A stretch of DNA of 63,394 nt, filler included, from Lenisia limosa (GCA_001655205.1; 12 parts of 12 records of this genome joined end to end with filler, not necessarily neighbours in it), one strand, 5' to 3'; counted from the first letter of the whole stretch, positions 32,467 through 61,500 are shown. Notes: generated by a model from the letters alone, not told the origin. Numbers and translations are program-made.

Positions 32467-34860
32467 CCCCCCACGGAAGCCTCCTCGTCGGCAGTTACGA
32501 TTCGCACGTCGTTGTTAACTATTGAGGGGACTGGCAGGGCGGGGAGAGCTTCGGCTCCTTCCAGGTCGTTGAGCGCCTGGTGATGGTGATAATGTTGTTG
32601 GTGGTGATGATGATGATTGTGGTGAATTAATTTCGATATAATACTATTAGTATTACATTCCAACCAAGAAGCCTTCCAAGCATAGAGGAATTGTCACCAC
32701 AGTTTCATTCCGGTTCGAAAAAGTCCAGTAAACTACCGATGGATTTATCGATAATTCATTCAGTTTTTTTTGAACCGAAGTGAAGCCCTAATTCCCACAG
32801 ACCTTCCAAACATAGAGGAATTCTCGCATACACGCACTCTGCTTTTGCGCGGTTTGGTTTTGGGACTTTAGAACCCTGTGGAGTAAAAATGAAGCACCGC
32901 GACGCTACCAAAGCCCAAATAGTATCTGGATGAAGCCGCATCATCACGCTTATAAGAGAGTTATAGTATCTGGACAGGTCCACGCCATCACATTTATAAG
33001 AGACATTGGATTAAAGTTGGTATTTCATCAACTGGTTAGAAACCACATTTTCATATTTGTAGCCTCATTGCTTTCAAGTCATTCATAAATTCCCCCTGGC
33101 TTACTTGATGAAATGATGAACGGCTGCATCCAGATGCCCCATGAAGTAGTGCTGCCGTCCTGGGGAGTAAAATGGGTAAATGTTTGAAAATAAAACAAAA
33201 ATACCCAAAATCAACTGTGACTTGGTTTGAGCAATTAGCGATACAATTAGAGTTAGACAGAAGTAAATCTCAGAGAGATCTGCCCATTCCAATCTCGGCT
33301 TAACCCCGCTTTAAACACCAAAAATGGGAGAAAAAAAAGTGAAACCCAAAACCCCCAAAATTTGGAAAACCCTGAATCGGGAAAACGGACATTTTATTTT
33401 GCAATTCTTCACCCTGGAATTCGTTCGTGTTGTTCACTCACCACAGCATCACATAGCCCTCATTGCAATCAACAAAAATGTACGAAATCACCTCCTTACC
33501 CAGAGTGAAACTCGCATGCGTGGCCACTTTCGTCCAGTTGGAGTCCTCATAGGCGGCAAGAGCGAGTGTAAAGCAGCGGCGTGCGTGGATGCGATGCCCG
33601 CCCGTGCCTAGTCTGGGGGGTGAAATGAAGGAAATTTCGATGAAGAATAGTGGCGTAAAGGTACTATGCTAATCACGAAAAGAATAACTGAAACTCCAAA
33701 CAAAAAAACAAGCAAAAACAAACACGAGGAAGTGAAATGAAGGGAATTTAAGAGGGGGGTGGAAAGGTAGAAGGGGAGGGGAGCTAGTCACGCGAAAAAT
33801 GCAAAAAAAAAGGAAGTCAAAATTCCTTCTTCTTGTTTCAAGGTAGTGACCAATAAATAGAGACGAGAAATGAAAACAAGGTTGTATCAAGGCAAAGCTA
33901 TCCACACCATCACGCTTTTAAGAGACATTGGATTAGAGTATAATATTCATTCACCCAATCATTTGCCTTACAACTCTGTGTACAAATAACTCACCTTTGA
34001 GCCGCCAGAATGAGGTTGAAGTAGCACTTGCCTAATATGGTAAGTTAAGGTTGAGCCACAATTTTATCGACTACATATTCAGAAATCCCTGTTTTATTTT
34101 CCTGAAATGATCACCCTACTAATAAATGGGGTGGTAGGCAACGCAGAGAATACACACACAATGTAGTACACACACATGTATAATATAGCTATTATATAAA
34201 TATATAATTATATGATATATTATACTACACGTATAATATATCATATGTGATTCTATGGCATAATTTTTTCATTAAACTCACACGCACACTAAGATTACAC
34301 GTCATTTCAATTGTTAGACTTACGAAATATAGAGCAGTGTTTATAGTCACCATTATAGCACCATCCATTTCACAAGATTATCATTTCCCTTACGAATAAG
34401 GGGAGTGGGGCAACGCAAGAAGCAATAAGCAGCCTGTTCCAGGAAGAGACCTCCTCGCAGGTCTGAGGACTGGGGGGGGGGGGGNNNNNNNNNNNNNNNN
34501 NNNNNNNNNNNNNNNNNNNNNNNNNNNNNNNNNNNNNNNNNNNNNNNNNNNNNNNNNNNNNNNNNNNNNNNNNNNNNNNNNNNNNNNNNNNNNNNNNNNN
34601 NNNNNNNNNNNNNNNNNNNNNNNNNNNNNNNNNTAACAATAATAAAAATAATAATATATTAGTAAAATGTACATACTACATATGCATATGGATATTCTAT
34701 CATTACTACTATTATAATACAAAACAAAAAATGTTAAAAACTACCTCAGCGGCGGCGTAAGTGAACATGTTGGCTGCGGTCCTAATCTGTCCGGTCGCCA
34801 AGAGAGCCGCGCCTTGCATCATGACCTGCCGGGAGTATTCCAAATGGTGCCTGGGATGGT
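32467..34860 (-). CDS. TRAPPC8: TRAPPC8/Trs85 internal fragment
   Basis: DLRGGLFLEQAAYCFLRCPTPLF|RKCYFNLILAAQR|..GHRIHARRCFTLALAAYEDSNWTKVATHASFTLG|RQHYFMGHLDAAVHHFI|..QKQSACMREFLYVWK|..LPALPVPSI, co-linear with human TRAPPC8. Confidence 0.9.
33612..33720 (-). repeat. Intronic repeat C; other copies 35281-35360, 56252-56300, 59350-59440
   Basis: Minus-strand consensus GTTTGGAGTTTCAGATTATTCGGTTCGTGATTAG..TACCTTTACGCCA..ATTCTTCATCGAAATTTCCTT. Confidence 0.8.
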
Positions 34861-35141
34861 TACTGAAGTGCAAACTACTGGTCCAGCTTTCTCCAAATGA
34901 TGACTTAAATAATAGAGTTTTTGGTTTGATTTAGTGCTTAACTTTCAGTTTCAAAAGGCTNNNNNNNNNNNNNNNNNNNNNNNNNNNNNNNNNNNNNNNN
35001 NNNNTTAATTAATTAANNNNNNNNNNNNNNNNNNNNNNNNNNNNNNNNNNNNNNNNNNNNCAGGGGGGTAAAATTGGGCAAATGAGAAAACTTCTCCTAG
35101 TCTGCCCCCCTCCCCACTTCGCAAATAGCCGAGCATTGAAC

Positions 35142-38100
35142 CTCAGTTATGTGCTGAGACCCCACAATGGCGAATTTGAGAGCCTGGTTGAACTTTCCAG
35201 GGCGGTGAGCCTATGGGGGATGAGCCTTTATCAAACAAAAGAAAATACCCAATTAAAGAGGCGAAGGGGGCAAAAAAACTAAGGAAATTTCAATGAATAA
35301 TATTGGCGTAAAGATTCACCAGGGTTAATAATATGATGATAAATCAAACAAAAAAATAGACAAGAATCATGCCATAATTGGACGAAGAAGGAAAGTTCGC
35401 AACCCCACAAACCTGGAATGAAATATTCAGTTTCACAGACTCCTTGGGCCCAAGCACCCATCGTGTTGGAGGTTTCATAACTTCAGGTTCGACAGGGGGC
35501 ACAACCGCGGCGGCATGGCCGGATGAATGACCGCGACTCGTCACAACCGGGGCTTCCTGCGGCTCCGGAGAGGGGGGACGCGGGGCGACCAGTTGGAAGC
35601 GCCGGACCTTATCTGACTGCTTTGGATTGGTCGAGGCTGGCATGTGGAGGACTTGAAGAAGGACTGGCGGCGGGATAGCGAGAGCGCCTTCGTCACTGTC
35701 GATCTCGGCAACCGGCTCTGGCAGAGCCTCAAGAATCTCGGCAAACACCGAATCACAGTCAGCGGAGCCGTCAACGGACACCGCAAAGGCCAGTCCGGGT
35801 GGAAGGTTGGCAAGGGCAAGAGCNNNNNNNNNNNNNNNNNNNNNNNNNNNNNNNNNNNNNNNNNNNNNNNNNNNNNNCTTGGCTTTGCCCTCCTTCTGCA
35901 TAGGCGCGTCAGATTGTGACGAGAACATTGCTACAGCGGCGTCGACGCCGGCAAGATAAACGTTGGCGTCGGCTTGCCACGGGTCCACGGAGTCCCCGGT
36001 CGGTGACAGGGCCCCCTTCTTACCCCGGCCCTTCAGGGGGCGTCCGCGTTTGTCTTTCGTTACATTCATTGCGCTGTCGCCATGCTCTAAAACAGGCTCG
36101 TCATCCTGAGGTACATTACCACCCGGGCTGGGGAGGGCACTTCCGCCAGGGGTCAAGGGAGCGTTGTCGCCTTTGTCTTTGGCGTTACGCCGGCGCCTCG
36201 CCTTCTTATCGTCGTCTTTGGACTTGGTCTCTGCAAGCCTCCGAGCCTCATCTTCGGCCACGACCTTCGCCAGCTTCTCCTGTCTACGCTGCCGCCGGAT
36301 CTGAAGAACGCGGCGGTCGTACTCGTCGCGCGCGTCCACGTCGAGCGCATCGTATTCGTCTTCTGACAGCTCCTGGAACTCGGTTTCCAGCCGCAGTATC
36401 TCGGCCTCTTGTGTCGCTGCGGCCGCGACAGCCTCATCAATCTCACGTTGCTTCGCTTCTTCAGCCTCGCGAATGCGGTTTTCCTCCTCCTGGCGCATGG
36501 TTTCGATACGCAGACGCGCAGTGTCCGTATCCACATTCACGTCCACTAACCAGCAGCGTTTGGCTGTCGGCTGCGGCGGCGATGCGGCTTCTTCGAATGC
36601 GGTGACAAGGGTCACGGCGCTCCGAGCCGTGTTCAGGCCAGTAGAGGTGATTTTCGACTTGGACTTGATCAAACCCCGTACCGTGGTCGGCGGCATAGAG
36701 ACGACCGGTGCTTCCTGTTCTTCTTCTGTCGGAAGCTGGACTTCGGGAGGGACGGGGCGTGTGGACGCGCAGCACGCAAGTCTGATTGCGGTCACCGTGG
36801 CTACCATACTGGCAGCGTACTTGGAGTTCAAACTGTCCCAAACCGAGCCTCTTGCATGGGCAGGGCTTCGGATGGCTGTCCAGGCCAAACCGGCAATTGC
36901 CTCTAAAGGAAGATTTTGTCCGGACTGAAGTCGGTCACGTGACCATTTCGCCAGGGGGTCGACATCTTCAGGCACAGTACCCGGGCGTTCGTCCTCGTTT
37001 TCATCTTCAACAGAGGGCGGGACCGCGGACAGAGCCGAGTCGACAATGTGGTCGAGGTTCATGAGAGTCAAGCCATGGCTCTCGATCAAGCTATTAACGG
37101 CAGTTGTCACGCCGGCACCACTCAGACCGTGAACAATGACGTTGATGGAGTTGTCGTGCGGCAACGCTGTGGCCTTCTCGTTGCTGTCAAGGTCGATCGC
37201 CTCGACCGTGTCAAGAGGAGGAAGCCCTTCAGCCACGCGACGAGCGCGCTCAGCGGCGAGCAGTGTGGGGTGTAAGCTCTCTCCGGCCTTTCGAGGGGGA
37301 AGGAGCATGGTGTCCGAATCCGGGTCCCAGCCCTGTGCATGGCGGAGAATCTCAACTTCCTGATGATACAATGAGTCGAAGTCCAAACTGTAGAACTCCA
37401 GGCTGTGCATCGTTGGGTTTGTCAGCTCAACTTCGCCCAACTCCGGCTCGACCGCGGTCGGCAAGACGGGTCCGAGTACCAGTTTGGAGGTACTGGCCTC
37501 GAGCCGAAGGACGTCGCCAGAGCCTCTCACGCTCAAAGTGCGGAAGCTGCTGTTGTGAGTGATCCGGAACGGCAGTTCGGCCTTAAAAGACCCCTCGTCA
37601 GTGGGTGCGAAGGTGACCTCAATATTGACTCTGCCGCCGGCGGCAAGAGATCCGGAGTCCGGGACGACTCTAAAGGGCGTGCCGGAGGTGTAGCGGCCTC
37701 CGCTTGTGCCGTATGGAGTGTACGACCATTGCGCCACGACGGGCGATGGGTTATGCAACTGGACTGTGACCACCTTGCAGAGACCGCAGACAACGTGGCC
37801 GAAGACAAGCTTGTCTTGGCTGAAGAGCACATCAGGGACCGTAACGTGTGCCTGGAGAAGAACTTCGACTGACGGTCCATCCCGTATGCTGATAGGAACA
37901 ATGGTGTTGACCATTCCTTGGTTGCCGCGTTTGGCCCGGGTTTGGATAGAGAACACTAAGTCCACGGACTCGCCAGGGGGCAGGGACTTTACCCGGTCAG
38001 GTGTGATACTGAAGAATGACGACTGCAGTGCTTTACGGCCGATGTCCAAACTGGCCGCTACCACTCCGGTGTTGGTGAACGTAACAACTCTCTTTCGAGA

Positions 38101-40758
38101 CTGTCCGCTGACGACTTCCCCGAAGTCGCATGTGAAGTTTGACAGGACCATTTGCTTGGTCACTACGGGGGCAGGGGTACTACGGAGACGACGGGCTGGA
38201 TGGTCAGTTCGTTTCATATTTTGTGCATTCCTACGGTCCCAAAAAAAGGCTGAATTTATCAATAAATCCTCGATAACATTATAAATACTTTATCGGACCG
38301 TAGAAAAGCACTATTCATATTAAAAAGGACATAATAAAAATAATGTAATAAAAAGGACATCATAAAAATATCAGCACTGTCAGCACATTCATTTGGTAAT
38401 GGTGCACGTAGGATATATCGAACGAACGCCGCATTATCTCAAAATGATATTGACGAAGGTAGTACTACAACTGACCCAAGATCTTCGCATACCTGAAGGG
38501 GGCGGGATCTCCTCCTTCGCAGTGACCGATTCCACAACAGCCAGTCTCTCAGCCTCGGCTCGGACCAGAGTAACTCGCTCCTGTTCCGCACGCGCAAGAG
38601 CTCCTGCAATGTTAACCGAAGTAAACAGGAATTTGCAGTTCACTTTAACGTGCACAAAATGTCTTCAAAGAAGAAGAAGAAGAAGAAGAAGAATAGTAAT
38701 AATAATAGTAATAATAATAACAATAATAATAACAATAATAATAACAATAATAATAACAATAATAATAATAGGGCCAACCAGGGGAAACAACAGAGGGAGT
38801 TTCAACACTAGTCATAGACTCCACTGCAAGAAGCGGAACTGGGGGCTTCTAGGAGGATGAATACCAAGAAGACTGTTATGCTGAAACGATCAAAGAGGTG
38901 CTTATGGTATCCCTATGTATTTATTTGTTTCCCTAGATTTCTAATGTATATAGTATTTCTCTTGTTCAATAAAAGAGAAAGCATTAGCCCCAAACCAGTT
39001 GCTCAGCGCCGTCTTTATCGGACACGGTCATATCGGTACGCGCAGTTTGCGGTTGCGTCGGCGCCTCCTGCTGCTCAACATCGCTTTCCTCAGCGGGAAT
39101 AACAGGAAGTTTCATTTCCGGCGGCAGAACATCCAGGATCGTCTCGAGAGTCGGGCCTCTCGCCGACGGAAGAGCGGATGGGGCGGCGGACGTAAAAGCG
39201 GATTGCGGAACACTAAAGGACCCCGGCTCGGCCAGGCTCATTTGGCTTGAGGAGGAATGGATCGTAGAGATCTGTTCGACACACACAGACCCTGAGGCAA
39301 CGCGGTTGAGAAGGTCCATGACGTTCGGAACGTTTTCGTCGGCTTCGGGAAGGAACATATCGACGCTGTCTTCGGTCCGCGGCAGACTCACGTTCACACG
39401 GGGGAAAACTCCGATTCCTTTCACTGTCACCTGTCAGCGGTTATATGGGGATAATCGAACACAAGTAGAGCATAACTTTTGGACTCGACGCTATTTTTAA
39501 ATCAATATTATATCAAAAATGCATTTTGGGACTAGAAGAGCAGTTTTTGAAAGAAGAGAGACAGGACGTAAGAAAAGAGAAAGGAGAACAAGAACAATGA
39601 AAAGCCCATTTGAAGATAATGGATAAGTAGAACCGCAATGACTCATCCCACTATCCCCCTTACGTCCTGAGGCTCGAAATGCGCCACTTTTACGGTGAAT
39701 TTCTCAGACACCGCTGCCGGGAGCCCGGGTGTGAACCGGACAACAAGCTTAACGCGGTCACCGGCCGGGATGGTGCCCTGGGCCGGGGCAATTGACAGAA
39801 GACCCCGTCCTGAGATGTTGTGAGTGTGCGATAACAAATTCATCACAATACATGAAAGAAAGCAATCTAGTATTTATATGTATTGAAAGAAAGAAGTAAA
39901 TTAATCAGATTGTAGATGGATTTGTCAGTCATAAAAGAAGCCGAAATAATTAATTTAAGGAGAAAATGACCCTCTAACGAGCGGCAGGGGGGATGAAAGT
40001 GCGGAACGCAAGGGGTACGCGGCCGAGGTTGGCGACAGCAATTTCCTTCTCTGCTGGGATGTGGTAGACCTGTGGCGTGAGAAGGAGAGATAAAGTCCTA
40101 TTTGAAATGTTAGTTAATGTGATATATCATCTCAACAGTCAACGATGTTATGCCCCTACCTGGTGCTTGAAATCTAGCATTGTGCGGTCAATCGCGTAAC
40201 GAGAAGCAGCAGCCTCGCCAGAAAGCAGTAAGCTGTACTGGGGCCCTCCAACGACATTACACACTGCGTAGACCTGAGCCTTCTTGGCTCCGAGAGCTCT
40301 GAAGACCACCCGGGACTCCAGGGACTCCCCGGGTTCTAGCTCGCCGGACATAGGGACAACATCGAAGATCTAAAGATCGGTTTAGGTGTTAAAGATCTAG
40401 TGGTGTTAAAGACTGATGATCGGATAAGGTGTTAAAGATATAATAATCGAATAAGGTGTTTATCGGTCAGCATTCTGATAGCCCTCCCATTTCCTCCACA
40501 GTGGAAGCAAAATGCGGCAGAAATGCGGCATACTTGGTTGAGTGGAGGGCCACCAACGGGGGGAGGACCGAGATTCGACCGCATTTCCAGGCCCCATTTG
40601 AAGTGAACGGGAAGGACAGACGAGTTGGTCATAGTCACCTTCTGGACGGGCTCGGTATCTAGATTGGCGCAGCCGAAGTTCACGCTCGTTTCGCTGAATG
40701 TCAGGTTCGGGAAGTGGGCTTTTGCTGAGAGCTCCACCGAGTCGCGCTGGGGGTGGTC
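35142..40758 (-). CDS. HYDIN: HYDIN central-pair protein, internal fragment with ASH/PapD repeats and P-loop-like insert
   Basis: About 2.8-kb exon inside the 972-aa ORF (DFGEVVSGQSRKRVVTFTNTG, FGHVVCGLCKVVTVQLHNP, FYSLDFDSLYHQEVEILR, NVIVHGLSGAGVTT); upstream exons FPNLTFSETSVNFGC, YSLLLSGEAA..YAIDRTMLDF, VAHFEP. Confidence 0.9.
38668..38770. repeat. (AAG)n/(AAT,AAC)n microsatellite in a HYDIN intron
   Basis: Visible directly. Confidence 0.95.
38906..38968 (-). repeat. Intronic repeat G; other copies 42491-42550, 54971-55031, 59882-59935, 60255-60311
   Basis: Host-sense consensus TGAACAAGAGAAATAATATACATTAGAAATCTAGGGAAACAAATAAATACATAGGGATACC. Confidence 0.85.
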
Positions 40759-40899
40759 CTGTGGGGTTAGAAAATCATTATCCATANNNNNNNNNNNNNN
40801 NNNNNNNNNNNNNNNNNNNNNNNNNNNNNNTTAATTAATTAANNNNNNNNNNNNNNNNNNNNNNNNNNNNNNNNNNNNNNNNNNNNTTACTCCCCCCAG

Positions 40900-42861
40900 A
40901 CCGAGGATTACGAGGTCCTCAATGTCACGCCCTCCGAAGGCCGTTTAGCACCAGGGGCGAAGACCAAGGTCACATTCCAGTTCAGGCCGCTTTTGCCACA
41001 ACCGCGACAGGGTGAGAGTTATTGGATCTATTGGATCTATTGGATCTATTGGATCTATTGGATCGGGGGGAGGGGGAATTCAAATCATATACTACTGCAT
41101 ATGCTCATATGCCCCTTCCCTGGGTAACTTTACATTAATATCCTTCATCGCAATTCTTTGTTTTGTACGATGGAGTGATGCTTGATTGTTTTTGTCTTTA
41201 TTGTTATCAACCCTTGTGTGTTGCTAGCCATCAGAGTTTATTTTGTGCTATTTTATTTTATTTATTTCATTAATTTTCCAATTACCCCTTCCTCTCCCCC
41301 CCCCCAGGCTTCTCAGCCGCCGACCCTCCCGGCACGTCCCTAATTCGCGAGTACGACGTTCCAGCCTCGTTGAAGGTTGTTGAAACCGGCCATGAGGTGT
41401 ACCTCAACTTCAGCGGACGGGTGGGGGGGGGGGGNNNNNNNNNNNNNNNNNNNNNNNNNNNNNNNNNNNNNNNNNNNNNNNNNNNNNNNNNNNNNNNNAG
41501 TTAGAATTCAGGTCCCCAAATAATTCAGAATATTTTTCGTTAATTTACGAATTTCTTAAGTTAAAAAAACTTAATTTTTTAATAATTAAATTTACGCACA
41601 TATGACGATGTAAAATTCACGTCGCCGAACCCTTTAAAACCTTCGGTTTGCCTCACCCCTCCAGGCCATGCGCCCCATTGTGGAACTGTCTCTTAAGGAT
41701 ATTAACTTCGGCGAGGTGGGTGGGAGTCGAGCTGTGGTTGATATGTTTCTTCATTTTTAGGTGTTTTGTATGTATGTATATACCTTTTTTGAGTTATTTC
41801 ATAAAATATTCAGGAAATTTAGGCAATTTTGGAAGGACACTTACCGTATTTAGGTTGTTACTCTCGGAGCTGCAGATGTTGCTGTCAAGCTGCGTAATCT
41901 CTGCCCTGAATTACCCATGCCATTTAGTGGGGGCTATGTCATTTGTGCATTTATTGTGTTCATAGCAATCAAAACAGTACAACCTCTTTTTAACTAATCA
42001 CGCAGACTTTGAGCGCGTGGCCCATTTTCGCGTCAGCCCCCTCAAAGGTACCCTGCAGCCTTTCCAGTCCACAGACGTCATTCTCACTTTCGCGCCTAAT
42101 CAGGTACGCTAATATTGCGCCATGTTTACGAATCGTGTGTTGTTTGTACTTGTTCTTTGTTTGTTTTGTTGTTCTCAACCCTCGTGTGTTGTCAGCCAAC
42201 AGAGTTGATTTTGGNNNNNNNNNNACCCGGATTCGGCCATGTTGACGACTCTTGTACTCAGTGTGAGGCCAAGTTCTTCAAGGCCACTACCGCTAATTCC
42301 GTATGGGGGAGTGGTATATCACCAGTGGATGTGGGTTAAAATATGACATTTTGGTTCATTCACACGTGTGCAATATTGTTTTCCATCTGATACTGTCCAA
42401 TTATTAATTAATTTATCATTTTTAAAAAAAAATCTTTTGCGTTATTTTGATCTATCCACACACCCAATATCTTTGACCTCCCCCTTTTTTTAACAAAAGA
42501 AATAATATACATCAGAAATCTAGGGAAACAAATAAAGAAATCGGGATACTATCAACAAATAAATATCAAAATTTTAAATTTTTTGGATACTTTTTTTAAC
42601 TGTATTGTAAAGTGAGGTAAAACAAATTACCCCCTTAATCAAACACCTCTTTATTTCTTTCTCAACTCCACACCGAGCCCGGGCTTTTTTTGTTTTGTTG
42701 TTCTCAACCCTCGTGTGTTGTCAGCCAACAGAGTTGATTTTGGGCTTTTTGTTGTTGTTTCATAAATTGTCCAATTTTACCCCCCTCTGTACTGACACCA
42801 CAGATGGGGCAATTCCGCTCGGTCCTGCCACTGCATGTCTGCGGCGGCACCGGCCTTGTCG
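40900..42861 (+). CDS. CFAP47: CFAP47-like ASH-domain ciliary protein, internal fragment
   Basis: VTPSEGRLAPGAKTKVTFQFRP..EYDVPASLKVVETGHEVYLNFSG..LSLKDINFGE|..LRNLCPELPMPF|..VAHFRVSPLKGTLQPFQSTDVILTFAPNQ|MGQFR resembles CFAP47 (NFEIDPEKG..SFVPHQLGVFK). Confidence 0.75.
41028..41066. repeat. (ATTGGATCT)n short tandem repeat in a CFAP47 intron
   Basis: About 4-5 units visible. Confidence 0.9.
42678..42803 (+). repeat. Intronic repeat B (intron 3'-end cassette), about 15 copies in the window
   Basis: Consensus GGGCTTT..TTGTTGTTMTCAACCCTCGTGTGTTGTCAGCCAACAGAGTTGATTTTGGGCTTTTT..TTCATAAATTTTCCAATTTTAC(C)n..AG. Confidence 0.9.
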
Positions 42862-43274
42862 GTACGGGGGTATTATCGGATACAGCGGCCTTGACGGTCC
42901 GGGGGTATGAAAATTACAGAGTTGTAATGTTAATTATTGGCTGAATTAATAGTATGATTATGCTACAATCTACTATCTCTTATAGACATGGTGTGGACGA
43001 TTTCGGCCAGATACAACCTTATTTTTTTTCATTTTTTTTCATTGTTACATATAGCGGACTTGTCGGTATGTTTACTCACTCCTCAGAACTTCGCGTTATG
43101 GGCTCAGCCGTCGGGTACCAAAGATGCGTCAAGGCAAGGGTGGGGGTGTAGTTGATTTTGTCTTTTTTATTATTACCCAAAAACTCCCTCAGTCTTGCCT
43201 TCTTTTTTGTTCCCCAGATACCCTTCTATTGTCCATGCCCTTACCCCGCCTCCCCCCCCCCCCCNNNNNNNNNN

Positions 43275-44509
43275 TTTTCTAAGTGCGAGTGTCTCCCCAC
43301 GTTTATTAATGTTGGAGGGGGTCACAATTCTTGTCATTCATCATAATCATCAACATTTACCATAATCATAATCACCACCATCATTATCATCACCATCACC
43401 ACCAACATCACCATCATTAACATCAACATCAACATCATCATCATCATCATCATCATCACCGCCAATACAGGTTGGCAGCGACTTAGAACCGACATGTACC
43501 TGTCCACAAGGAACTGAACTCACTATTCGAGGTGAGTTACATTGGGTGCTTTAGAGGGGTGTGAGTTATAGTTTTTCTGTTTCCATAGAGGTTGACACAA
43601 AATTTGCTGTTAAATATACTGTACTATAATCCAATATCTTTTATAAGCGTGATGGTGTGTACGGCTTCGGCCAGATACAACCTTGTTTGTGTATTTCCTT
43701 CTCCTAGATAATACCTTGCTTTCTTGGAATTCACTTCGGTTCGAAAAATACCAGTAAAATAGTGGTAATTTTCGAAGATTAATCGAGAAATTAAGTCTTG
43801 TTTCGAACCGAAGTGAAGCCATATTTCTTGCTCCTCTACATCTTATATCTGATAACTTGGCTCTCAAAAACTTCATCACTTAGATTCAACCCCTCTCTGC
43901 GCTCCATGCCCCAAAGGCTACATTACTGGTGAGGGGGCTGGGAGGTCTAAAAAAAATGGCTGGGATCGGTGGGATAGTCTGTATATCTAGGTCTTCACGT
44001 CAGCTGGAAAAAAGACTGATTTTTTCGATAAATCGTCGACAGCTTTCGATATTTTCCTGTCATTTTTCGGACTGGAGTGAAGCCCAATGTCTATGGTGTA
44101 ATTTTTTGAAGAGTTGGATATAAATGTTCATAGAGNNNNNNNNNNNNNNNNNNNNNNNNNNNNNNNNNNNNNNNNNNNNNNNNNNNNNNNNNNNNNNNNN
44201 NNNNNNNNNNNNNNNNNNNNNNNNNNNNNNNNNNGTATTCATCCAAATAACCTTTTTTCCCCTGCAATTATTTTCACTTTTCCCTCAATATTGAAACTCG
44301 AATTTCAAGCAAGCTTTTCCTTAGAACCAATTGTCGACATCCACAATATTTCTCTCCCTTTAATTTATCTCGAATGTCCAGGGGACGTTGGCTTCTGTGT
44401 GCCATGCGATGATGGGGAGACCTCTAATGTCCTCGGGACCGTTTGTGTCTGTCTCCAGGGCTTCTATCTTGATGAAGATACGAAAATATGCACCAAGTGC
44501 CCGGATGGT
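43275..44509 (+). CDS. Cys-rich repeat (CxC/CxxC, GCC2_GCC3-like) surface-type protein fragment; an extra exon lies at 42225-42300
   Basis: Exons CECLPTFIN, PTCTCPQG, PLCAPCPKGY, CVPCDDGETSNVLGTVCVCLQGFYLDEDTKICTKCPDG with GT-AG borders. Confidence 0.75.
43335..43460. repeat. (CAT/CAC/CAA)n microsatellite
   Basis: Visible directly. Confidence 0.9.
43625..43692 (+). repeat. Intronic repeat D with GGC-TTCG-GCC hairpin; other copies about 6782, 32915, 32965, 33872, 42980, 46815, tandem 48484-48692
   Basis: Consensus TCCAATRTCTYTTATAAGCGTGATGGTGTGKACGGCTTCGGCCAGATACAACCTTGTTT. Confidence 0.85.
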
Positions 44510-44544: not shown

Positions 44545-44629
44545 AAGGGCTTCACTTCGGTTCGAAAAAAAGACTGGATTTCTCGATTTCGAAAACTATC
44601 AATAATTTCCCGAACCGAAGTGAAGCCTT
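44545..44629. mobile_element. MITE family A (about 85-100 bp, 17-20 bp TIR); copies near 8350, 32701, 38224, 43728, 43989, 44545, 47747, 60609, 60742, 61478, 62435, 63025
   Basis: TIR GGGCTTCACTTCGGTTCG / CGAACCGAAGTGAAGCC(C), or variant GGGCTTCCCTACGGTCC; shared core GACTGAATTTCTCGATAAATCCTCGAAAACTATCGATAT; mostly TA/TTA flanks. Confidence 0.85.
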
Positions 44630-44859
44630 TATTAACATGNNNNNNNNNNNNNNNNNNNNNNNNNNNNNNNNNNNNNNNNNNNNTTAATTAATTAANNNNN
44701 NNNNNNNNNNNNNNNNNNNNNNNNNNNNNNNNNNNNNNNGACCTTGCATCCTGTCAGATCACACGGGGTGATATCGTGGTGAGAATGGGCGCTGATGTGT
44801 TAAAAAAAACAACAGTTTTTCATAAGAATTCATGCATGAAGCAAATGGAGCCAGGAAGC

Positions 44860-47459: not shown

Positions 47460-48382
47460 ATAGTTGTTTTTCTACCCAACAAAGTACCTCACACCACCAG
47501 CCGTAGACGTGACCACAATCAACCAAGCCCCCTCTTCGTCTTTCCAGTCGGAAACCCCTGATTCCTGGTGGCAAATTAAAGTGGGGGGAGGGGCAGGACA
47601 CGCTTCCGTTAAACCACCAAAGCGGAATTCGTTCCTAGTCCAAGACAAGTTGTAATTCAAATGATATATTGTCAAGTATACTGTATCATTTTAATGCCTT
47701 TTCTATTTCTTTTTCTCTCCAACACTATCTCCATCATCACCCCTTAGGCTTCACGGTTCGAAATAAGACTGAATTTCTCGATAAATCCTCGAAAACTATC
47801 GATATAATACTGGTCTTTTGCAAAACGAAGTGAAGCCCTTATCACTCCCTAGACGAACAACCCATCCTCGTCCTGGATGGACAATGTTGGAGAGTCGAGT
47901 GGAACATCATTTGTCAAGCCGAAAAAGAAGAAGGAAGTGGGGGGGGGGGTTAATATTGATTGTAATATCTGTTTTTCACGATATTTTATTATTTTTTTGA
48001 ATTTCACATGTGATTTTTTTTCATATTTTTTTTTTGAGCAACATTCCAATATATTTATAGATATACCTATTGCATTACCTTTGAGTAAAATCTATTATAT
48101 TTGAGCTATTCCATTTTATTTTAAGTTCTAGTTCGGTATAGTGCAATTAATTTTTTGAGGAAATTATTTGACAAAATTTGACATTAAAGTGTTTGGAATA
48201 GGGTTCTCGTTACAATATGTCCGACCTCATTCAATTAATTGCACGGAGCCCTAGTTATTGGTCTTCTATATGACATCACCCCAGATTGTCTATGACGACA
48301 ACCTCTTCAAAACGACTGAAGTGTCGGAATGGAAAGCGTCGGAAGCAACGGTCGGAAGCGAAGCTGCCCCGGCCGCTGGCTC
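47460..48382 (+). CDS. Hypothetical Ser-rich protein fragment with basic NLS-like motif
   Basis: GT-AG exons ..DSWWQIK, ..GTSFVKPKKKKE, and one from about 48284. Confidence 0.4.
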
Positions 48383-48483: not shown

Positions 48484-48692
48484 GTTGTATCTTCAAATAT
48501 TATATCTAGCAATGATAAATCAAAACAAGGTTGTATCTGGCCTAATCCTTCAATTATCATATATAGCAATGATAAATCAAAACAAGGTTGTATCTGGCCG
48601 AAGCCTTCAATTATCATATATAGCAATGATAAATCAAAACAAGGTTGTATCTGGCCGAAGCCGCCCACCATCACGCTTACATGAGATATTGA
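48484..48692 (-). repeat. Tandem about 59-bp units built from repeat D
   Basis: GCAATGATAAATCAAAACAAGGTTGTATCTGGCC repeated 3 times, plus a partial unit. Confidence 0.9.
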
Positions 48693-48702
48693 ACCCCCCT
48701 CC

Positions 48703-50400: not shown

Positions 50401-51127
50401 ATATAGTTATATTATTAGCTCTATATACTGACTGGGATAAGTGGTAACAGAATTTGCTATGCGATTTCCTAAGGAAAATCGGTCATGACTTGTAATGCTA
50501 CATATCATATATTCATGATATCCAATCCTTGACTTCAAATTTTCAATTTGACATTATAGAAATATTGACCCATCTTTAGAATACGATGCCACTGAGGAGG
50601 GACTCTATTTGCAGTATATCCTAGACGCAAAGTACTCCAACAGTGCAGGCGAAATAATGAAACTTTTAGGCGAAGACTTAAAAATGCACGTTATTAACTG
50701 AGGAATTTGGCAGATCTCTGATTTAATACTCTATGTAATATAATTTCCCCATTATTGTTATTTCCTCTAACAGATTTATTATGACTGTGTAACAGAAAAA
50801 TCGATAGTTTTGGAGGATTTATCGGGTAACTCTGCTTATGGAGATATTTGAGGATTTTCTTCGGTTTTCAGCAAGAGGCAATACACTTAAAACAATGTCG
50901 CCCATCCTACCTGCTTGTTTATATTTAACCCTTTCTGACTATTAAACCCAGGTAAAGCCAAAAATATGACGCAGAGGGTTGTTCTGAAGTTCAAGTTCCT
51001 TCCATATCTGAGCAGAATCCATTGAACGACGTTTTACCTTGGCGTGGAAAACCAAAGATTACTCGCCACCCGGATTGGTTTCCGCCTTCAGAGATGCCAC
51101 CGAAACCCCCAGAATAAAATTTTGACT

Positions 51128-52180: not shown

Positions 52181-52584
52181 AATATGGTAAGTGGTGTTGC
52201 CTAATATGGTAAGTTGGTTGTACTATAGAAATTGGTATTGCTTATGGTAAGTGGTTTGTCTAATACGGTAATTGGTTGCCAAATAAGGTAATGCCCCCCT
52301 CTGTTTACATGATATGTTCAAGGTATTACCTCCATGTTTGGGCGCTAGCGTTGCTACCTTCTAAAATAAAACATCAAAAACAAAATAAAACTATAGAAGG
52401 CCACAGTTCCTCTTCTTCGGTTTTATTGGGCTACCAAGGTATATAGCGTTACCCCACTATTTATTTTATATATTTTTTGAGAAGAGTCAGGGCAGTTTCA
52501 AATTTTTATTTTTTTATTGTTTATTGTAAAAACCTGTTTTATATTTAGTTTAATTGCAGAAAGTAGCAAAGCTTGCGCCCAAAA

Positions 52585-53210: not shown

Positions 53211-53539
53211 CCAAGTCAATGTCACCCTTGTGTGTTGTCAGCCAACAGAGTTGATTTGGGTTTTTTGCTTCATAAATTTTCCAANNNNNNNNNNNNNNNN
53301 NNNNNNNNNNNNNNNNNNNNNNNNNNNNTTAATTAATTAANNNNNNNNNNNNNNNNNNNNNNNNNNNNNNNNNNNNNNNNNNNNTGCAATACAATAAAAC
53401 AACTCCAAATATGGGATAAAGAGAAATGTCATGATGGGGAGTAATTTAAACAAAGGCAAATCATGCAATATAGTATATATCATATCTACATCATATATTT
53501 TCAATATCACATTGTGTTGACATATTGCAAACTACACTA

Positions 53540-56500
53540 CGGCGCATCGACTTGGGATACCCTTGTAGTATATGGAAATCCCATATTTTGTTGAGATTTT
53601 CATACAATCATAATTCCAATTACTTTCCATAAGAATCCCCGAAGTGCAACAACAAATGTTGTTCACTGTTTACAAACAACAGCAAAGCATACCCAACGGG
53701 GCTGGTAGAGTGGCCTTGAGATTGCCTGGGGTCACTTTGAGGTGGACGTCAATGGGGTCAACGATGGACTGAATTCCGTGCATCCTACGGGGGGTGAGAT
53801 GGAGGTCATCTAATCAATACAATATTGGCAGGTTTGTAAAAATAAAAGGGGGTGGAGAGTACAAAACAAGATACATAATAAATGATCCATTTCTAAGAAG
53901 TACTTCATCTTGAGAGGCAAGTCTTGCCCATTAGATTGCTTTCTGAAGAATTTTATGGGTTGTCCTAATTTTGAAATTCTAAAACCACTTCTTAAAAGTC
54001 TGTACATTTTGCCAAGAAGGCTTTATCTGCCCAATAAAGAGCTTTGTTTAGCGGAACAGCAATCTCTTATGTCTTAGAGTTTCATGAAAACAGGCTCCAT
54101 TTTTTGAAATATTATGGCTATTTAATGGGTGGTGCGATACGTGTCTCTTTGTTAATTCGGTGGAATGGTACAGTCTGGTATTAGTTCAACAAGCTTGCAA
54201 AATATATTAAATTTTGTCCAGTCAGAGAGGATTTTTTTTTTTTTTTTTTTTACATTCAGTAAGGGATGTTTCTGAGATATGTTTCATGTATTCCATCCTG
54301 ATAATGCGCATTGCAAAATAATATGACATTGCAAAGCTTGTTTGTTTTCTCCCCAGATTCTTAGGCCTTGGACATATGCCTTGGTCCGTCAGCAATGAAA
54401 ACACAGCATGCAAAGACCCCAAAGACCTCGAAGGTCAACAAATTGATACTTTTAATAAAATATGAAAGACTATGCGTATATACATACATATATTATTAGT
54501 GTATGTAATACTCTATCGATGTACAGTATATCATCAGGTAATGTGTGAGCTACACATATTTACGATGGCAGATGTCAGTATTATGTATAGTATAGTATGA
54601 ATGACGGATGAATCTGCTGTTGACTGTTTTAGTACAACGCCACTGCGTTTATACGCTTTATTCGGCAATTTCAGAATACAGGCCCTGTCCTATCCACTTT
54701 CGTTGACACAATTGCGGCTTGTTATGAGGAGTTTAAGGCCTGCTGTAACTCGCTATTTTCAAACGAAGAATTTTTGGGTTTCAGCCTTATGTCTCAGTTA
54801 ATTATTATTATTATTTCTTTCAAAAACAAAAATCTGTTTACAACATTAGCTCACATAAAGGCATTAACTAGCCAGTACTCACCCAGCTGCGGCTGGGGTC
54901 TCCAAGCACCTAGTGTGACTCGGGGAGGTGGGCACCAAGGAGCGTGGGCGCGGAGGCATGGTAACTTGTTGGTATCCCTATGTATTTATTTGTTTCCATA
55001 GATTTCTAATGTATATTATTTCTCTTGTTCAAATTTTGTTTTTCTTCACCCGGTGTGACATCACTTCTCTTCAGCTGCGTTGAAACTGTGTTCAAGGTAT
55101 TCTGTTGGGGGATGGGGGGTGGCAATGGATGATAATGTTCATCTTGATGTTTTTTTTTGTACTTATTGTAGGTTTCGGTCCCGACAACATTGCTCTGCAA
55201 TTGCAGGCAACACCTTGCATATGCGTCTCCTGAGGATGATAGAGGAATCCGTCTGACAGACTCTGTTTGAGGGCAATTACTGGTATTACTAGGGCGCGAT
55301 TGATTTTAATTTTTTAATTTTAAAGGAGCCCATCAGGAAGGAAACAAGCTTTGTGTGTGTTCCTTCCCTGCGCTATGTATCAGAACTGAAAGAAGATTTC
55401 CAAGATTTCTTTGATGGAGGAGTAGTTTCAAAAGGAGTAACAGAGTGGTTTTTTAATGAAATTGTATCTACCTCTTAAACTTTTTATTTATCAATCGCTC
55501 ACTTACAATTTTTAACCAAATAAAAACCAATCGCGTACTTCCAAAATACCTTTCTCGGAATAATTTTAAAGTACACAGCCAATCATGCGCTAGAAGAAGA
55601 ATAGGGGAAGGGGATGAAATGAAAAANNNNNNNNNNNNNNNNNNNNNNNNNNNNNNNNNNNNNNNNNNNNNNNNNNNNNNNNNNNNNNNNNNNNNNNNNN
55701 NNNNNNNNNNNNNNNNNNNNNNNNNNNNNNNNNNNNNNNNNNTGCCACCGAAGAATCTGAAGGGTTAGTATTCTGGTGCAAAGAGTCCTGAATACGACAG
55801 AATGAGATAAGGAATATTGTGGGTATCAATGGCAACAAACAAAAAAAAAATCCAGTAATCTGCTTTTGGTGATGATTCACAGATAGCACAATATATGATA
55901 TTCCACTAGAGACGAAATTATCTGATTCAACATGACCAAAATGCTAAATAATGATCATAATAATAACATTTAATTAGATTCAGCAATAATCCAAATGCAA
56001 AGCTCAAGAAAGCTAGAGAAAGCGTCCAACCAAGGAGTGAGGAGGCCCTGATCTGATGGAGGGACGCCTTGAGGCAGAAGGCATCGGGGGTGACATCCGC
56101 CCATATGTTGTTCTTGTNNNNNNNNNNNNNNNNNNNNNNNNNNNNNNNNNNNNNNNNNNNNNNNNNNNNNNNNNNNNNNNNNNNNNNNNNNNNNNNNNNN
56201 NNNNNNNNNNNNNNNNNNNNNNNNNNNNNNNNNNNNNNNNNNNNNNNNNNNCTAATCACGAACCGAATAATCTGAAACTCCAAACAAAACAAAAAAAAAC
56301 AAACAATAGCACACGAAAGTGTAAAATTGGAAAATTTATGAGAAAAAAAGGCCCAAATTAACTCTATTACCTTGTGACACCACACATGCAACACCGTCTA
56401 TATGAACGTCCACCGAGTGTGGCAGAACAGGAATTTCTTCAGTGACAGGGGGGTAGTGCGTCGGAGCTAGGGAGGTGATAGAGAATTAATAATGAGCAAT

Positions 56501-58450
56501 GGGGAATATGTAACGGTAATTTCAGTAAGAAAGAAATTCGGTAATATTTTTGACTAAAAAAACGCTCCTAGTACCCCCCCCCCCCNNNNNNNNNNNNNNN
56601 NNNNNNNNNNNNNNNNNNNNNNNNNNNNNNNNNNNNNNNNNNNNNNNNNNNNNNNNNNNNNNNNNNNNNNNNNNNNNNNNNNNNNNNNNCTGCGTTCAAC
56701 ATGCTGAGTGGGGGTAAATAGGGAAATTCACGAAACAAAAACAAAACAGAAGCAGCACTGATGGCTACATTTCGGAAACAATGCTAGTGATGGTGGGGAC
56801 ACGGATATGATTGAGCTTGATCTTTAGTAAATCGGGTCAGGACTTATACCTGTCATTTATGATGTATTCAACTCTAAATGGAATTGTAATGGTGAAAAGG
56901 AGAGAGGATAGTGATGAGAGTAAATTGGATGAGAAAATAATGAAAATCCAAATTAATTATAATATTAAATGAAGAGGGATGGTTGCTCTTATGTGAACAC
57001 ACGATTACCCCTTGTTCAATCCCCGTCATACCCAGCTCGAATGGAGCATTCACTCGTATCCTCCCCAAAGTTGGTTAGCTTCAGCGATAAGGCGTTGGCT
57101 TCTAAAATCATGAATGTGGTGAAAAATACAGTATGGTATATTCGTTTAAAAAAATCAAAATATTTTGTATAAAACTATCCTCAGCCCTGGCGTACCATTG
57201 TTGTCTGCTTGCTTAGGAGGCGCCCATTCAATAGAGGGTGGCGCTGATACTAAACAAAATAAGTCAAATAATCCTCCGATCAAAGAAAAATCGATCAATC
57301 GACGATAAATATTGACATTCTAGACTACCCATTTCTCAAAAACTGAAAGCAGGAGTTACCTCTACTGTTATTATACACATCCACATAAATACATGTGCAT
57401 AGTATGATGTACATATCATATATCATATCCAAATATATCGGCTATCCCCCGCACAGGCAGCCACGGCGGCGGTGATAGTGTCCGAGGCTTCTCCCACGTT
57501 GAGAGCGAGACTTGAAAACTGGGGGAGGGGTAAGCCCAAATCAACTCTGTTGGATGACAACACAGGAAGGTTGGTTGATAACAGCAAAACATAGCCCAGG
57601 CCAGGCGCTTCTGCAGCGCCGCATCCCATCCCTCCATGGAGGGTGGGGACAAAGGGGGGGGGTGAATAAAACAACTCTGTTGGCTTGAAACATGAGGGTT
57701 GAAAACAACAAAACAAATAAAGCCCGGACCAGTGCTTCATGTAATGAGATATGTGGTGAAGAGGGGGGTGCAGTTGGATGACCGACTACAGATAGTGAAA
57801 CAATATGTAAGAAGAAGAGGTTCATACAAAACAAAGAATAAGAAGAAGATGAGCATTGCAAAGAGAACAGCAAATAAACAGCAACAGTTTACAACACCTG
57901 ACCAACGCTAAGTTTGACTAGGGGAAGCGAGCGGTCTCCCGGGCTTGGCATTTGTTGCGGCTTAGCAAGCCGACCGTCAAAGGAATATTCCGGCGTCATT
58001 GCTTGGAGAATAGAAGTGTTCATTGCAGCCTAGTGGAGAAGGGGTAAAAATGGAAAAACTATAAAACAAAACAAAAACCTGGATCAACTCTGTTGGCTAA
58101 ACATGTATGAAACACACGAGGGTGCAAAGACAGATGAAGAAGTAAAATCAGTGTATATCCATGTATGAAACAACTCAATTATTCTGCTGTTGTTTGGTTC
58201 AAACCCTGCCGTCTCTCCTATGGTCTCTATGTGTCTCTAGTTCAAATTTATGAGTTTGTTATAGTTCATTCTTTAAACTAAACATTCCACACTTGCAAAT
58301 AAAAATACATCCAATGTCAAAAGCTCCGCAGCCAACCTTGACCGTGCCAATTTTAGCCCGGAAATGTGACCCTTCATCGGAGTTATCGAAGTTAAAGTCG
58401 GCTCCTTGCAGCTGTACACTTATTTCCAGCATCTGGTCGTGACGTAATCC
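53540..58450 (-). CDS. Fragment(s) of a large beta-rich protein, possibly VPS13/ATG2-like
   Basis: Scattered minus exons (GLRHDQMLEISVQLQGADFNFDN..AKIGTVKVGC; HGIQSIVDPIDVHLKV; EANALSLKLTNF); family assignment is a weak impression. Confidence 0.3.
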
Positions 58451-58565
58451 TGGGAGGCACGGGAGNNNNNNNNNNNNNNNNNNNNNNNNNNNNNNNNNNN
58501 NNNNNNNNNTTAATTAATTAANNNNNNNNNNNNNNNNNNNNNNNNNNNNNNNNNNNNNNNNNNNN

Positions 58566-61500
58566 CTGGACCCCCTCAAAAAAGTCTCCCCTTGAGTTGA
58601 CACGCTCACGTCGCTCGAAGCCCCTGGGGGGTACAGGAATAATAATACGATTATTTTTATTGGTACAGAGCTGAAGTCTCAGCTCTTCCATTCCTCCCTA
58701 GCCTGGGCTTTGTTTTGTTGTTATCAAGCCTCGGGTGTTGTCAGCCAACAGAATTGATTTGGGCTTTTTTATTTCATAAATTTTCCATTTTTACTCCCCC
58801 CCCCCCCCCNNNNNNNNNNNNNNNNNNNNNNNNNNNNNNNNNNNNNNNNNNNNNNNNNNNNNNNNNNNNNNNNNNNNNNNNNNNNNNNNNNNNNNNNNNN
58901 NNNNNNNNNNNNNNNNNNNNNNNNNNNNNNNNNNNNNNNNNNNNNNNNNNNNNNNNNNNNNNNNNNNNNNNNNNNNNNNNNNNNNNNNNNNNNNNNNNNN
59001 NNNNNNNNNNNNNNNNNNNNNNNNNNNNNNNNNNNNNNNNNCTGTTTTGTTGCAAACACTGGCGTTGGGTAACGATTCATTTGCATTTTCTGTTGTATCT
59101 TCACGCCAATATCACTTCATGGGTTTGTCACTCCATTTTGCTCCCAAATCATCATAATCGTATTGACCGCCTCATGTTTGTCAGCTAATAGAGGATTTCG
59201 GGTTTTGTTTTATTCATAAATTTCCCCATTTTACTCTCCTCTCCCCCCAGAACGCCGAAATTCCACGGCATTGATGAGATGACGTCCGTGTATGCCACGC
59301 CTCATCTTGCGCCATCTTCCGCTGATGCCGCCTGGACCGTGAGAGGGGGGTAAAACGAAGGAAATTTCGATGAAGAATGTTGGCGTAAAGGTACTAATCA
59401 CGAACCGAATAATCTGAAACTCCAAACAAACAAACAAAAGAACAAAGGGGGGGGGGGGGGTNNNNNNNNNNNNNNNNNNNNNNNNNNNNNNNNNNNNNNN
59501 NNNNNNNNNNNNNNNNNNNNNNNNNNNNNNNNNNNNNNNNNNNNNNNNNNNNNNNNNNNNNNNNNNNNNNNNGGTTTTTTCTTTTGTGCAGCTTTGCGGG
59601 TACTTAAGTCCCTGGCAGGTACACGAGACAACGCCAATGGAAGCGAAGGTCATCTGCGTTGACATCTCTGATAGTGCTGAATTCATGGCTGTGTTGCTCG
59701 ACTCCATGACCATTAAAGTGTACCAGTGTAGGAAAGTGCATGATTCTTTATCGGTTGCCCCTTAATTACCCTTCTTACATCTGCTCCTTTTTAACCATTA
59801 TTAACCATGGGGTAGTTACCAGTGTCGGCAGCTTGAGATGCGGACGCACAGCGGTGTTTTGTAGGCTTGGTATTTTTTTTTTAACAAGAGAAATAATATA
59901 TACATTAGGGAAACACATAAATACATAGGGATTCCTCAATAGCTTTATGTTGTTTTTTTATGGTGTTTGAAGTGTTTTTGGACCGCAGTTTTGTGATTGT
60001 GCTAACATTGTTCAGCCCTGAAGGCTCCCAATGATAGCGAGGAAATCTCCTTCTGGACATGGCACCGACACAGGTCCGAGGGGGGAATGATGGAGTATAT
60101 GATATAGTATATGATATAGATATCGATATATATTACCTGTCAAATTTATGTTTCAAAAGCTCTATTTGTGCTGTAGAATGAACGGTGTTGAGAGGGGGTG
60201 CAGAAAAGGATAGAGTTTTCGAAAACCTTTATACAGTATCATATATTTTTTTTGATCAAGAGAAATAATATATAGTATACATTAGAAATCTAATAAATAC
60301 ATTGGGATACCATAAACAAATTACCATGCCTCCGCACCCACGCTCCTCCGCCTCCCTCCCGAAACATTTATAATGATAGTCTATCATATAGTATTCAGTG
60401 ACCGGGATAAGTCTTGAGCAATATATTTTCCTTGGGAAATCACATGGCAAATCTGTCAAGACTTATCCTGGTCACTGTATAAACTGGAGTGACTGGCAGC
60501 TGACGTCTGATATTCTCAGGGAAGAAGGGTCCACTCGTAGTTCCCTCTTACTTCTTGCTGTCCCCAACTTTGATACTGGTTGGGGGGAGGTGATGCTGTA
60601 TTGTTAGTAGGGCTTCCCTACGGTCCCAAAATAGAATGAATTTCCCGATCAATCCTCGATCATATCGATATTTTGACGGTCTTTTTCGGACCGTAGGGAA
60701 GCCCTAGTTGTGTGCCCCCATTCCCCTCGCTTTGTTACAACTAGGGCTTCCCTACGGTCCGAAAAGGACCGTTTAAATATCGATACGTATCGAGAATTTA
60801 TCGCGAAATTCAGTCTTTTTTGGGACCGTAGGGAAGCCTTAGTACATCACCCCCCCCCCCCGCNNNNNNNNNNNNNNNNNNNNNNNNNNNNNNNNNNNNN
60901 NNNNNNNNNNNNNNNNNNNNNNNNNNNNNNNNNNNNNNNNNNNNNNNNNNNNNNNNNNNNNNNNNNNNNNNATTTTGGGCTTTTTTGTTTCAAAAATTTT
61001 CAATTTTTACTCCCCCCCCCCCCAGGCCAAGTTCTGTTCTACAACACGCGAACGGGCTGTCTTGTCGATAAGTTCGGCGGACACGAGGGCATGACGTCTG
61101 TGTCCTTCCACAACGACATCATGCAGACCTGTGGGGGGGGGGGGTGGCTTTGCTATGTAACCCACAAGTCATTGAATAGATCACAAATCGAGGTTACCAT
61201 GTATATTTGGAGTATTGTACAGAAGACTGAGATTTTTCAATAAACTGAAGAGAAGGGGTGGATGTGAGTGCACTTTTTTGTTTTCATGCTTTCGACAGTA
61301 AAAATGTAATCGGTTTAAAAAGCTTCTCCAGCAACAACAACAACATGAACGATCATCCCTGGCATCAGTTACATTGCTTACTTTGCAGCTGCTAATGACT
61401 CCGTTTGCCTCTGGCGCCGCAGCAATTCAGAATGGGCCATTACACATGTTATTCTAGCTGCTGTAGGGGGGTGTTACTAGGGTTTCCCTACGGTCAAAAA

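Follow-up and report, generated by a model that had tools for sequence, protein, structure and literature searches.

The long introns in a stretch of Lenisia limosa DNA of 63,394 nucleotides (nt), referred to as the window, carry four families of short repeats, termed modules B, C, D and G, which lie almost exclusively in the sense orientation of their host genes. The apparent order of the modules is a matter of end-sorting: D and G are situated near splice donors, B and C at C-rich acceptors. With about even confidence, the modules are interpreted as four independent families of short, non-autonomous elements, which were inserted into introns of about 60 nt and filtered by splicing. Since such a filter would sort insertions to either intron end, a 5'-module would precede a 3'-module without any assembly machine. 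The original prediction had instead proposed that an RNA-level process builds introns from shared parts.

The window consists of 12 contigs joined by N-padded linkers and represents a eukaryote with GT-AG introns, its genes including hydin, myosin I, a CLC channel and a U-box protein. The closest proteins are distant, with 24–40% identity for hydin and mostly about 50% for a myosin exon, the best match of which is an opisthokont-labelled record. Further loci were obtained by means of an exact B motif, which matched eukaryotic contigs mis-binned in a bacterial genome (G001). These contigs belong to the same or a very close eukaryote and provide new loci, though possibly from the same sample as the window, which also applies to the DNA sequencing run X1. 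Among 42 small G001 contigs examined, B, C, D or G were located on L009, L010, L012, L016, L023, L037 and L040. G001, filed as a Colwellia bin, holds many eukaryotic contigs with spliceosomal-type introns (L009, L010, L012, L013, L016, L023, L037, L040 and probably others). All counts are drawn from the window and the mis-binned contigs, not from the whole genome. Intron boundaries are predicted from homology or splice signals; in the RNA sequencing run X2, the exons of contig 6 were without any coverage, and no RNA data set was listed as containing the hydin stretch, which says nothing about its expression. Host strands were assigned via Pfam, using 278 open reading frame (ORF) pieces of the window and 150 of 240 pieces of the extra contigs, which oriented few hosts, and from splice signals only for contig 8, contig 10, the start of contig 9 and L009.

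Sense orientation was observed for 44 of 45 scored copies, comprising all copies of B (22/22), D (11/11) and G (6/6) and five of six copies of C. The predicted sense polarity of every oriented B, D and G copy was thereby borne out, as was the count of three sense copies among four C copies in the window. The scored set counts tandem D repeats once, includes a D row at 62009 added by eye, and excludes a B copy on L037 with unknown host, the B fragment of the myosin gene, three B fragments on L009 and one match on L024 (E>0.1), weak C matches at 41124 and 59093, and weak D matches in L027 and at L012 3175. Because taking the strand from the adjacent acceptor is circular for B and C, the subset with a homology-given strand is of particular relevance. 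Here 24 of 25 copies are in sense (B 11/11, C 3/4, D 6/6, G 4/4), with strong homology behind only seven of them (four B and one each of C, D and G; CLC, hydin, hydin-like and U-box genes) and weak matches behind the rest. The antisense C copy (59341–59443, minus strand, presumed plus-strand host), the reversed end of which seems to overlap a predicted donor at 59339, lies opposite to B 59170–59242 (plus strand, 8 nt from AG 59250) on one unbroken stretch. The polarity extends beyond the window: among the best-supported 15 of 218 joint rows from X1, B and D point the same way in each of the six rows that join them (18 contigs), three B-B rows (11 contigs) lie on the same strand, and D-D joins are same-strand in 15 contigs and opposite in 3. 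MITE-A, a miniature inverted-repeat transposable element (MITE) of the same region, displays mixed orientation, 12 same and 5 opposite, versus 44:1 for the modules (Fisher p 0.005), the 17 copies omitting short fragments and those of unknown host strand.

Module-free introns backed by spliced alignment have a median length of 60 nt (22 introns), and in simple cases about 35–100 nt are left when the module is subtracted from the intron (42905–43054, 38995–38849, 35412–35211). Modules D and G start at a median of about 17 nt after GT (16 copies, 10 of them at 5–28 nt, a few donor positions being uncertain), whereas B and C end at a median of about 6 nt before AG (20 copies, 17 of them within 17 nt). 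This donor-side versus acceptor-side placement is reflected in Mann-Whitney p values of 6e-4 and 2e-5. Where measurable, B starts 67–373 nt after the donor. None of the 45 copies spans an intron from donor to acceptor, D and B share only one of seven fully bounded introns, and introns with G end in B in two of five cases. Moreover, the spacers between and beside modules are unrelated, the best match among 231 pairs comprising 17/18 low-complexity bases, and some B and C copies lie upstream of a seemingly retained native acceptor region (42803 and 35211). These features do not bear out the building of introns from shared parts. The idea that D and B mark the two ends of a single element was rejected on account of the single shared intron among seven, and so was pairing of G-rich donors with C-rich acceptors, the G count after donors being no higher in long introns (p 0.14).

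The sequence between the B/C end and AG is variable. Measured from the conserved end, the distance to AG has a median of 12 (18 acceptors, located by a crude regular expression), and a median of 12 also results when insertions are distributed uniformly over the AG-free 3' part of introns that lack modules (p 0.51 versus observed); the distances therefore fit a splicing filter. Where loose ends extend past B in X1, about 120 contigs read into a C-run, which the consensus continues with AG, and the C count in the last 13 nt has a median of 9.5 versus 4 (p 7e-6). This C-run is probably part of the B/C elements.

The reference copy of B (42674–42787, plus strand) is followed by a branch-point-like ACTGAC and AG 42803. 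Further plus-strand copies are located at 41190–41294 (followed by AG 41307, in a hydin/CFAP65-like gene), 53224–53284 (intron of the U-box gene, cut by the contig end) and 58698–58803 (ending in a C-run in front of a gap), and 3' halves at 10132–10180 (end of the CLC-channel intron, Pfam Voltage_CLC, right after an older acceptor-like C-run and AG) and 60972–61019 (6 nt from AG 61025, followed by a WD40-like exon). On the minus strand, B is found at 33162–33219 (3' half, 2 nt from AG; TRAPPC8-like host with a weak PDB match, E 0.16), 56319–56380 (followed by C; strand from splice signals only), 56708–56767 (degenerate, 4 nt from AG), 58035–58123 (5 nt from AG), and as a tandem pair consisting of 57668–57733 and a second copy with 5' extension, 57531–57640. 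Sense copies of C, all on the minus strand, lie at 33613–33719 (ending at the acceptor), at 35264–35366 (middle of the hydin intron 35412–35211, 53 nt before AG) and, as a 5' half cut by a gap in which the acceptor is lost, at 56252–56297. A myosin-I intron of 207 nt (30260–30466, plus strand), supported by spliced alignment with 6/6 homologues, holds a B 5' fragment recognized by eye, a gap and then a C-run with AG; other myosin introns measure 39–119 nt. On L037, one B copy is present without an adjacent AG. At 59170–59443 and 33104–33219, short exons have an acceptor module on one side, while the donor that follows coincides with an acceptor-like end in reverse.

The reference copy of D is located at 43604–43692 (plus strand). 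Full-length copies lie at 42914–43029 (plus strand, filling most of a 150-nt predicted intron) and 33868–33982 (minus strand, 12 nt after donor 33994), a 5'-truncated copy at 46808–46865 (plus strand) and a short fragment in the CLC intron at 6782–6815 (plus strand). Two tandem copies are found at 32918–33038 and a copy with two tandem 3' repeats at 48517–48693, 14 nt after the predicted donor 48707 (both minus strand), while a 5' extension of D at a contig end (62009–62035, plus strand) was recognized by eye and not by profile match. Module G occupies 38886–38977 (minus strand, 18 nt after the donor of a hydin intron), 42480–42560 (plus strand, mid-intron), 59875–59946 (plus strand, 5 nt after the donor), 60246–60333 (plus strand, with 3' extension) and 54952–55033 (minus strand, with a GC-rich 3' extension; strand from splice signals and neighbouring B copies).

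All module arrangements that had been singled out previously were recovered, namely D 43604–43692 followed by MITE-A 43729–43821; D 33982–33868, C 33719–33615 and AG 33613 on the minus strand; G 42480–42560, B 42674–42787 and AG 42803; and B 56380–56319 followed by C 56297–56252, with the acceptor lost in the gap. A further module, F, had been left undefined, and the sole repeat at 32581 is a CAT/CAC/AAC microsatellite matching 43359–43416. The probable F copies at 32577–32630 (minus strand) and 43340–43472 (plus strand) both consist of this microsatellite in front of an AG, so that F does not hold up as a module.

That such mosaics are assembly artefacts, caused by collapsed repeats and wrong scaffolding, is highly improbable. 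Many gaps adjoin modules and G/C runs, and at one join of ten N (42215–42224) unrelated-looking exons are linked beside two 98%-identical B copies. However, the same arrangements recur in a separate assembly, on contigs without gaps (L009, L010), and in independently built X1 contigs. The join itself cuts a B 5' part (42158–42215, plus strand), into which a DNA-run contig reaches. Its exons are hydin/CFAP65-like on one side and cysteine-rich on the other, and the B copy is 98% identical to 42684–42743, which makes mis-scaffolding via the repeat possible at this position.

According to self-BLAST and profile searches, B is about 110 nt long (up to 145 nt with its 5' extension), C about 105 nt, D 75–115 nt and G 75–95 nt. 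Profile matches at E<0.02 are found in contigs 1, 4, 5, 6, 8, 9, 10 and 11; of the claimed recurrence in at least nine contigs, eight of the 12 are thus confirmed, and a ninth is added only by the gap-cut B fragment in the myosin intron 30260–30466. Reversed-sequence controls gave no match for any of the five profiles. The 63-kb window contains 14 B matches. When X1 contigs were mapped onto a 1.2-kb segment with G, B and D, 10,532 records were placed, with a summed depth of 592,000 for B, 398,000 for D and about 17,000 for G, compared to 11–34 for single contigs. Depth is no copy number, yet crude division suggests that B and D each number in the order of 10^4 copies, MITE-A thousands and G hundreds, which agrees with the 14 B matches per 63 kb. 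The B cores are about 93% identical, and B starts are ragged while B ends are fixed. B and C share a similar T-rich end with a C-run. Reversed G ends in an A-run in five of six copies with a variable other end (small sample).

Self-comparison of the window revealed no self-inverted match and hence no terminal inverted repeats (TIRs) for B, C, D and G, and direct repeats in the flanks were no longer than in controls, giving no indication of target-site duplications (TSDs; permutation p 0.35, 0.42 and, for G, 0.21). At L009 7690, a D copy is flanked by a 10-nt repeat, as may well arise by chance in a set of 37 copies. None of the four modules matches Rfam. In the search for a head typical of short interspersed elements, ARAGORN identified no tRNA-type gene, and Rfam no 5S/7SL-type head of reversed G. 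B or D motifs gave no match in collections of metagenome contigs and viral contigs. Following the proposed search for a longer parent element with reverse transcriptase (RT) or transposase joining the modules, none was found in the window and the extra contigs. Likewise, no autonomous partner could be linked to B, C, D and G among the co-binned contigs, including the Helitron and the uncharacterized long ORFs. The modules are not pieces of one randomly oriented transposon, and their strand polarity persists outside the window, so that the original prediction withstood both of its refuting conditions.

Several features of D invite comparison with Helitrons: tandem arrays, a small hairpin, a T-run, an imperfect 10-nt inverted pair, and about 15 nt common to its 5' extension and the core of B. 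Moreover, an intact-looking RepHel ORF of 1,969 amino acids (aa) is encoded on the co-binned contig L036, and Helitrons are described to make composites from separate 5' and 3' ends (PMC4224331). It nevertheless appears improbable that the modules are pieces of one larger Helitron-type rolling-circle element, or of its captured cargo, in fixed order. No module, D included, matches L036 (best profile E 0.23), B, C and D are without 5' TC and 3' CTRR ends, the spacers are unrelated, the loose ends beyond B and D agree poorly (0.41–0.55), and rolling-circle spread would not by itself explain the polarity. A GC-rich repeat of 47 nt occurs in two 94% identical copies (9021–9075, plus strand; 54865–54920, minus strand), one continuing from G, the other upstream of a 5S rRNA gene. 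It comprises a hairpin, then CTGG/CTAG and T, folds with a z score of -0.37, and has no match on the RepHel contig; from its signature, we take it to resemble a Helitron 3' end.

Splice signals within the modules were scored using matrices built from only 22 introns. Reversed G displays a pyrimidine tract with an AG scoring 5.2–8.2 bits in four of six copies, compared to a median of 5.1 bits for real acceptors, and forward G has no GT at all in three of six copies. The argument that a pyrimidine-tract requirement cannot account for the polarity of purine-rich G therefore fails: since reversed G holds a cryptic acceptor, splicing can explain the polarity negatively, and reversed copies would be purged. 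For D and G, insertions may be tolerated only between donor and branch point, hence just after GT, at 5–30 nt in the shortest cases. B and C would bring their own pyrimidine-rich end in the form of the C-run, so that sense copies could be tolerated at the 3' end of the intron, where together with the next AG they might take over the role of branch point and pyrimidine tract. The insertions would have occurred in pre-existing introns of about 60 nt, splicing deciding which of them persist, while nearly symmetric TA-flanked MITEs could accumulate in either orientation. One antisense C, three contigs with opposite D and the AG-less B on L037 are exceptions which the filter predicts.

Folded as single sequences in the host-sense direction, B, C, D and G reach z scores of -0.06 to +0.83 and do not exceed shuffled sequences in stability; more stable than shuffles are reversed C (z -2.5) and MITE-A (z -2.6). 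Of the RNA-level process proposed originally, the part invoking intronic RNA structure is accordingly without support, whereas a transcription- or splicing-coupled route retains some probability, chiefly on account of the orientation retained by D and B, in which the cryptic donors are stronger. The fold values also bear on the idea that numerous introns received copies of selected functional RNA elements, be they splicing enhancers or small RNAs encoded in introns. Sense polarity and proximity to splice sites would suit such elements, and the most abundant core of B is a short hairpin. On the other hand, Rfam matches are absent, truncations are ragged, copies number in the order of 10^4, and most introns are predicted to be spliced without modules, which renders this idea a little less probable still than a Helitron origin.

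Several observations weigh against insertion followed by a splicing filter. Forward D and B hold stronger cryptic donors than the reversed sequences (for D, 7.4–8.6 bits in five of seven copies versus at most 4.5 bits), so that avoidance of cryptic sites fails to explain their polarity. The ratio of 44:1 is more extreme than the orientation biases known from mammals. Counting the C-run as part of B/C would place these modules nearer to AG than expected under uniform insertion. Neither TIR or TSD nor an autonomous partner assigns the four modules to a known class of transposable elements (TEs), and stacks of B/C beside older acceptor-like ends (10132, 33720, L009 5346, L009 3860) suggest targeting.

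As the main alternative, the modules may be decayed, nested and merged introner-like elements that spread in sense only by a splicing- or transcription-coupled route, either by reverse splicing into the displaced strand of an R-loop or by reverse transcription of excised intron RNA ending in C-run and AG. B and C would then be surviving 3' halves, D and G surviving 5' halves. Besides the near-absolute polarity and the lack of TIR and TSD, the ragged starts and fixed ends of B, the tandem B-B and B-C stacks at acceptors, a retained orientation richer in cryptic splice sites, and the parallel with the sense-only, modular IE-A of Micromonas (PMC3879977) and the R-loop model (PMC4540971) favour this alternative. 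However, no copy reaches from donor to acceptor, D and G have no common donor sequence upstream, the tail before AG is variable, and D ends in B in one of seven, G in two of five bounded introns. Furthermore, antisense copies exist, B cores of about 93% identity are young for total loss of the other half, and the co-binned contigs yielded no eukaryotic RT but only a bacterial group II intron-type enzyme (a second RT match was not examined). Taken together, decayed introners appear possible but distinctly less probable than filtered insertions. A still more tentative and rather doubtful reading treats B and C, with their copies in the order of 10^4, as mobile 3' splice sites. Equipped with an end that supplies branch point and pyrimidine tract, they would be copied out of excised intron RNA, insert in sense only right at existing acceptors and thereby exchange the 3' ends of introns time and again with no new intron formed, D and G doing likewise at donor ends.

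The closest known system is IE-A of Micromonas pusilla CCMP1545, an introner element (IE) family for which 6,112 copies with shared motifs, in sense only, are reported, together with partial remnants that lie within canonical introns and with nesting or merging of copies (PMC3879977); a model of IE spread by R-loops has been presented (PMC4540971). Both systems comprise thousands of short sense-oriented intronic repeats which share motifs, leave partial copies in other introns and nest or merge. However, IE-A copies, as described there, are whole introns from donor to acceptor, whereas here none is, 5'- and 3'-modules are uncoupled and rare antisense copies occur. Similar to introners in the broad sense, the modules are non-autonomous and situated at splice boundaries, and some introners contribute a 3' splice site only, according to two surveys (PMC9860276, PMC12130899). 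These surveys demand similarity to both boundaries, found for 0/45 copies at a sense orientation of 44/45, and exclude secondary insertions, which the modules resemble. In contrast to introners, the modules are without TIR or TSD; functionally, B and C may correspond to an introner's 3' half. Introner elements of Amoebophrya are likewise invasive repeats shaping protist introns, but they possess terminal inverted and direct repeats and non-canonical boundaries (PMC7789003), whereas here introns are GT-AG and neither repeat is present.

For mammalian TEs, one study describes an orientation bias that is stronger near exons, a preference for donors at <20 bp from exons, and a sense bias of Alu near exons because antisense Alu carries a cryptic acceptor (PMC3088655). 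The modules share the bias near exons, the donor side and, for G, the cryptic acceptor on the reverse strand. However, mammalian TEs are depleted near exons in that account, while the modules show near-absolute polarity, with B/C apparently making up the intron's 3' end; since the introns are so short, an exon is close to every module copy. The literature searched, which covered few subscription papers and no supplements, yielded neither an account of this arrangement nor a paper with any of four module motifs, and the tables of species and families in PMC9860276 and PMC12130899 may bear on its novelty.

Under the favoured reading, the modules represent an extreme case of a known splicing filter. 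Decayed introners, if true, would constitute a second, rare instance of spread in sense only as in Micromonas, in a half-intron form, and mobile 3' splice sites, if real, would amount to a splicing-coupled mobile element that remodels intron ends without adding introns. These possibilities touch on the turnover of intron sequence and on whether any eukaryotic repeat spreads through splicing. As a single repeat family appears to make up the 3' end in a sizeable proportion of introns, thousands of natural replicates are available, by which insertion bias could be separated from selection. The same circumstance accounts for the breaks of this assembly at intron ends.

MITE-A is an ordinary TA-flanked MITE. 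It has terminal inverted repeats, its profiles match both strands, most full copies are bordered by TA on at least one side, and coding capacity is absent. Copies are located at 8350–8445 (CLC intron), 32700–32793, 43729–43821, 43988–44090, 44546–44632 and 47744–47842, variants at 38231–38314 and 61478–61575, and two TA-flanked variants in opposite orientations within 60608–60841. MITE-A alone resembles Tc1/mariner-type (Stowaway-like) MITEs, namely in its length of about 100 nt, long TIRs, TA flanks and mixed orientation. Another MITE family, whose copies have CAGT ends and are flanked by TA, occurs at 60392–60481, 50422–50479 and 63199–63236 as well as on L009 (590–671) and L010 (2640–2723).

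The co-binned contigs encode a pogo-like DDE_1 transposase, a transposase which, judging from its motifs, is presumably Tc1-like, and the Helitron RepHel, whose ORF (L036 1163–7069, plus strand; Helitron_like_N, PIF1) lies between tandem repeats at both contig ends. RT of long interspersed elements was not found in the 4.6-Mb bin, a very partial sample. GC-rich ORFs of 870–1,050 aa with no Pfam match are present at L021 849–3578 (plus strand), L015 460–3180 (minus strand) and on L014 and L044. Those of L021 and L015 are 67% identical at the DNA level, and L021 shows a resemblance (atlas score 0.93) to the D5/DUF5906 primase-helicases that DNA viruses encode; such ORFs may belong to an integrated virus-like element. 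At L010 ~864–2631, an element with inverted ends of about 28 nt and a 258-aa ORF with no Pfam match resides in an intron of a galactokinase-like gene. Within the window, the start of contig 1 (703–1058 and 1881–3005) is 82–89% identical to L013 and hence a multi-copy element. The predicted CLC-channel intron contains a full-length 5S rRNA gene (9566–9684, plus strand, 73.5 bits), upstream of which locally duplicated segments are found at 8968–9018, 9132–9171 and 9293–9348.

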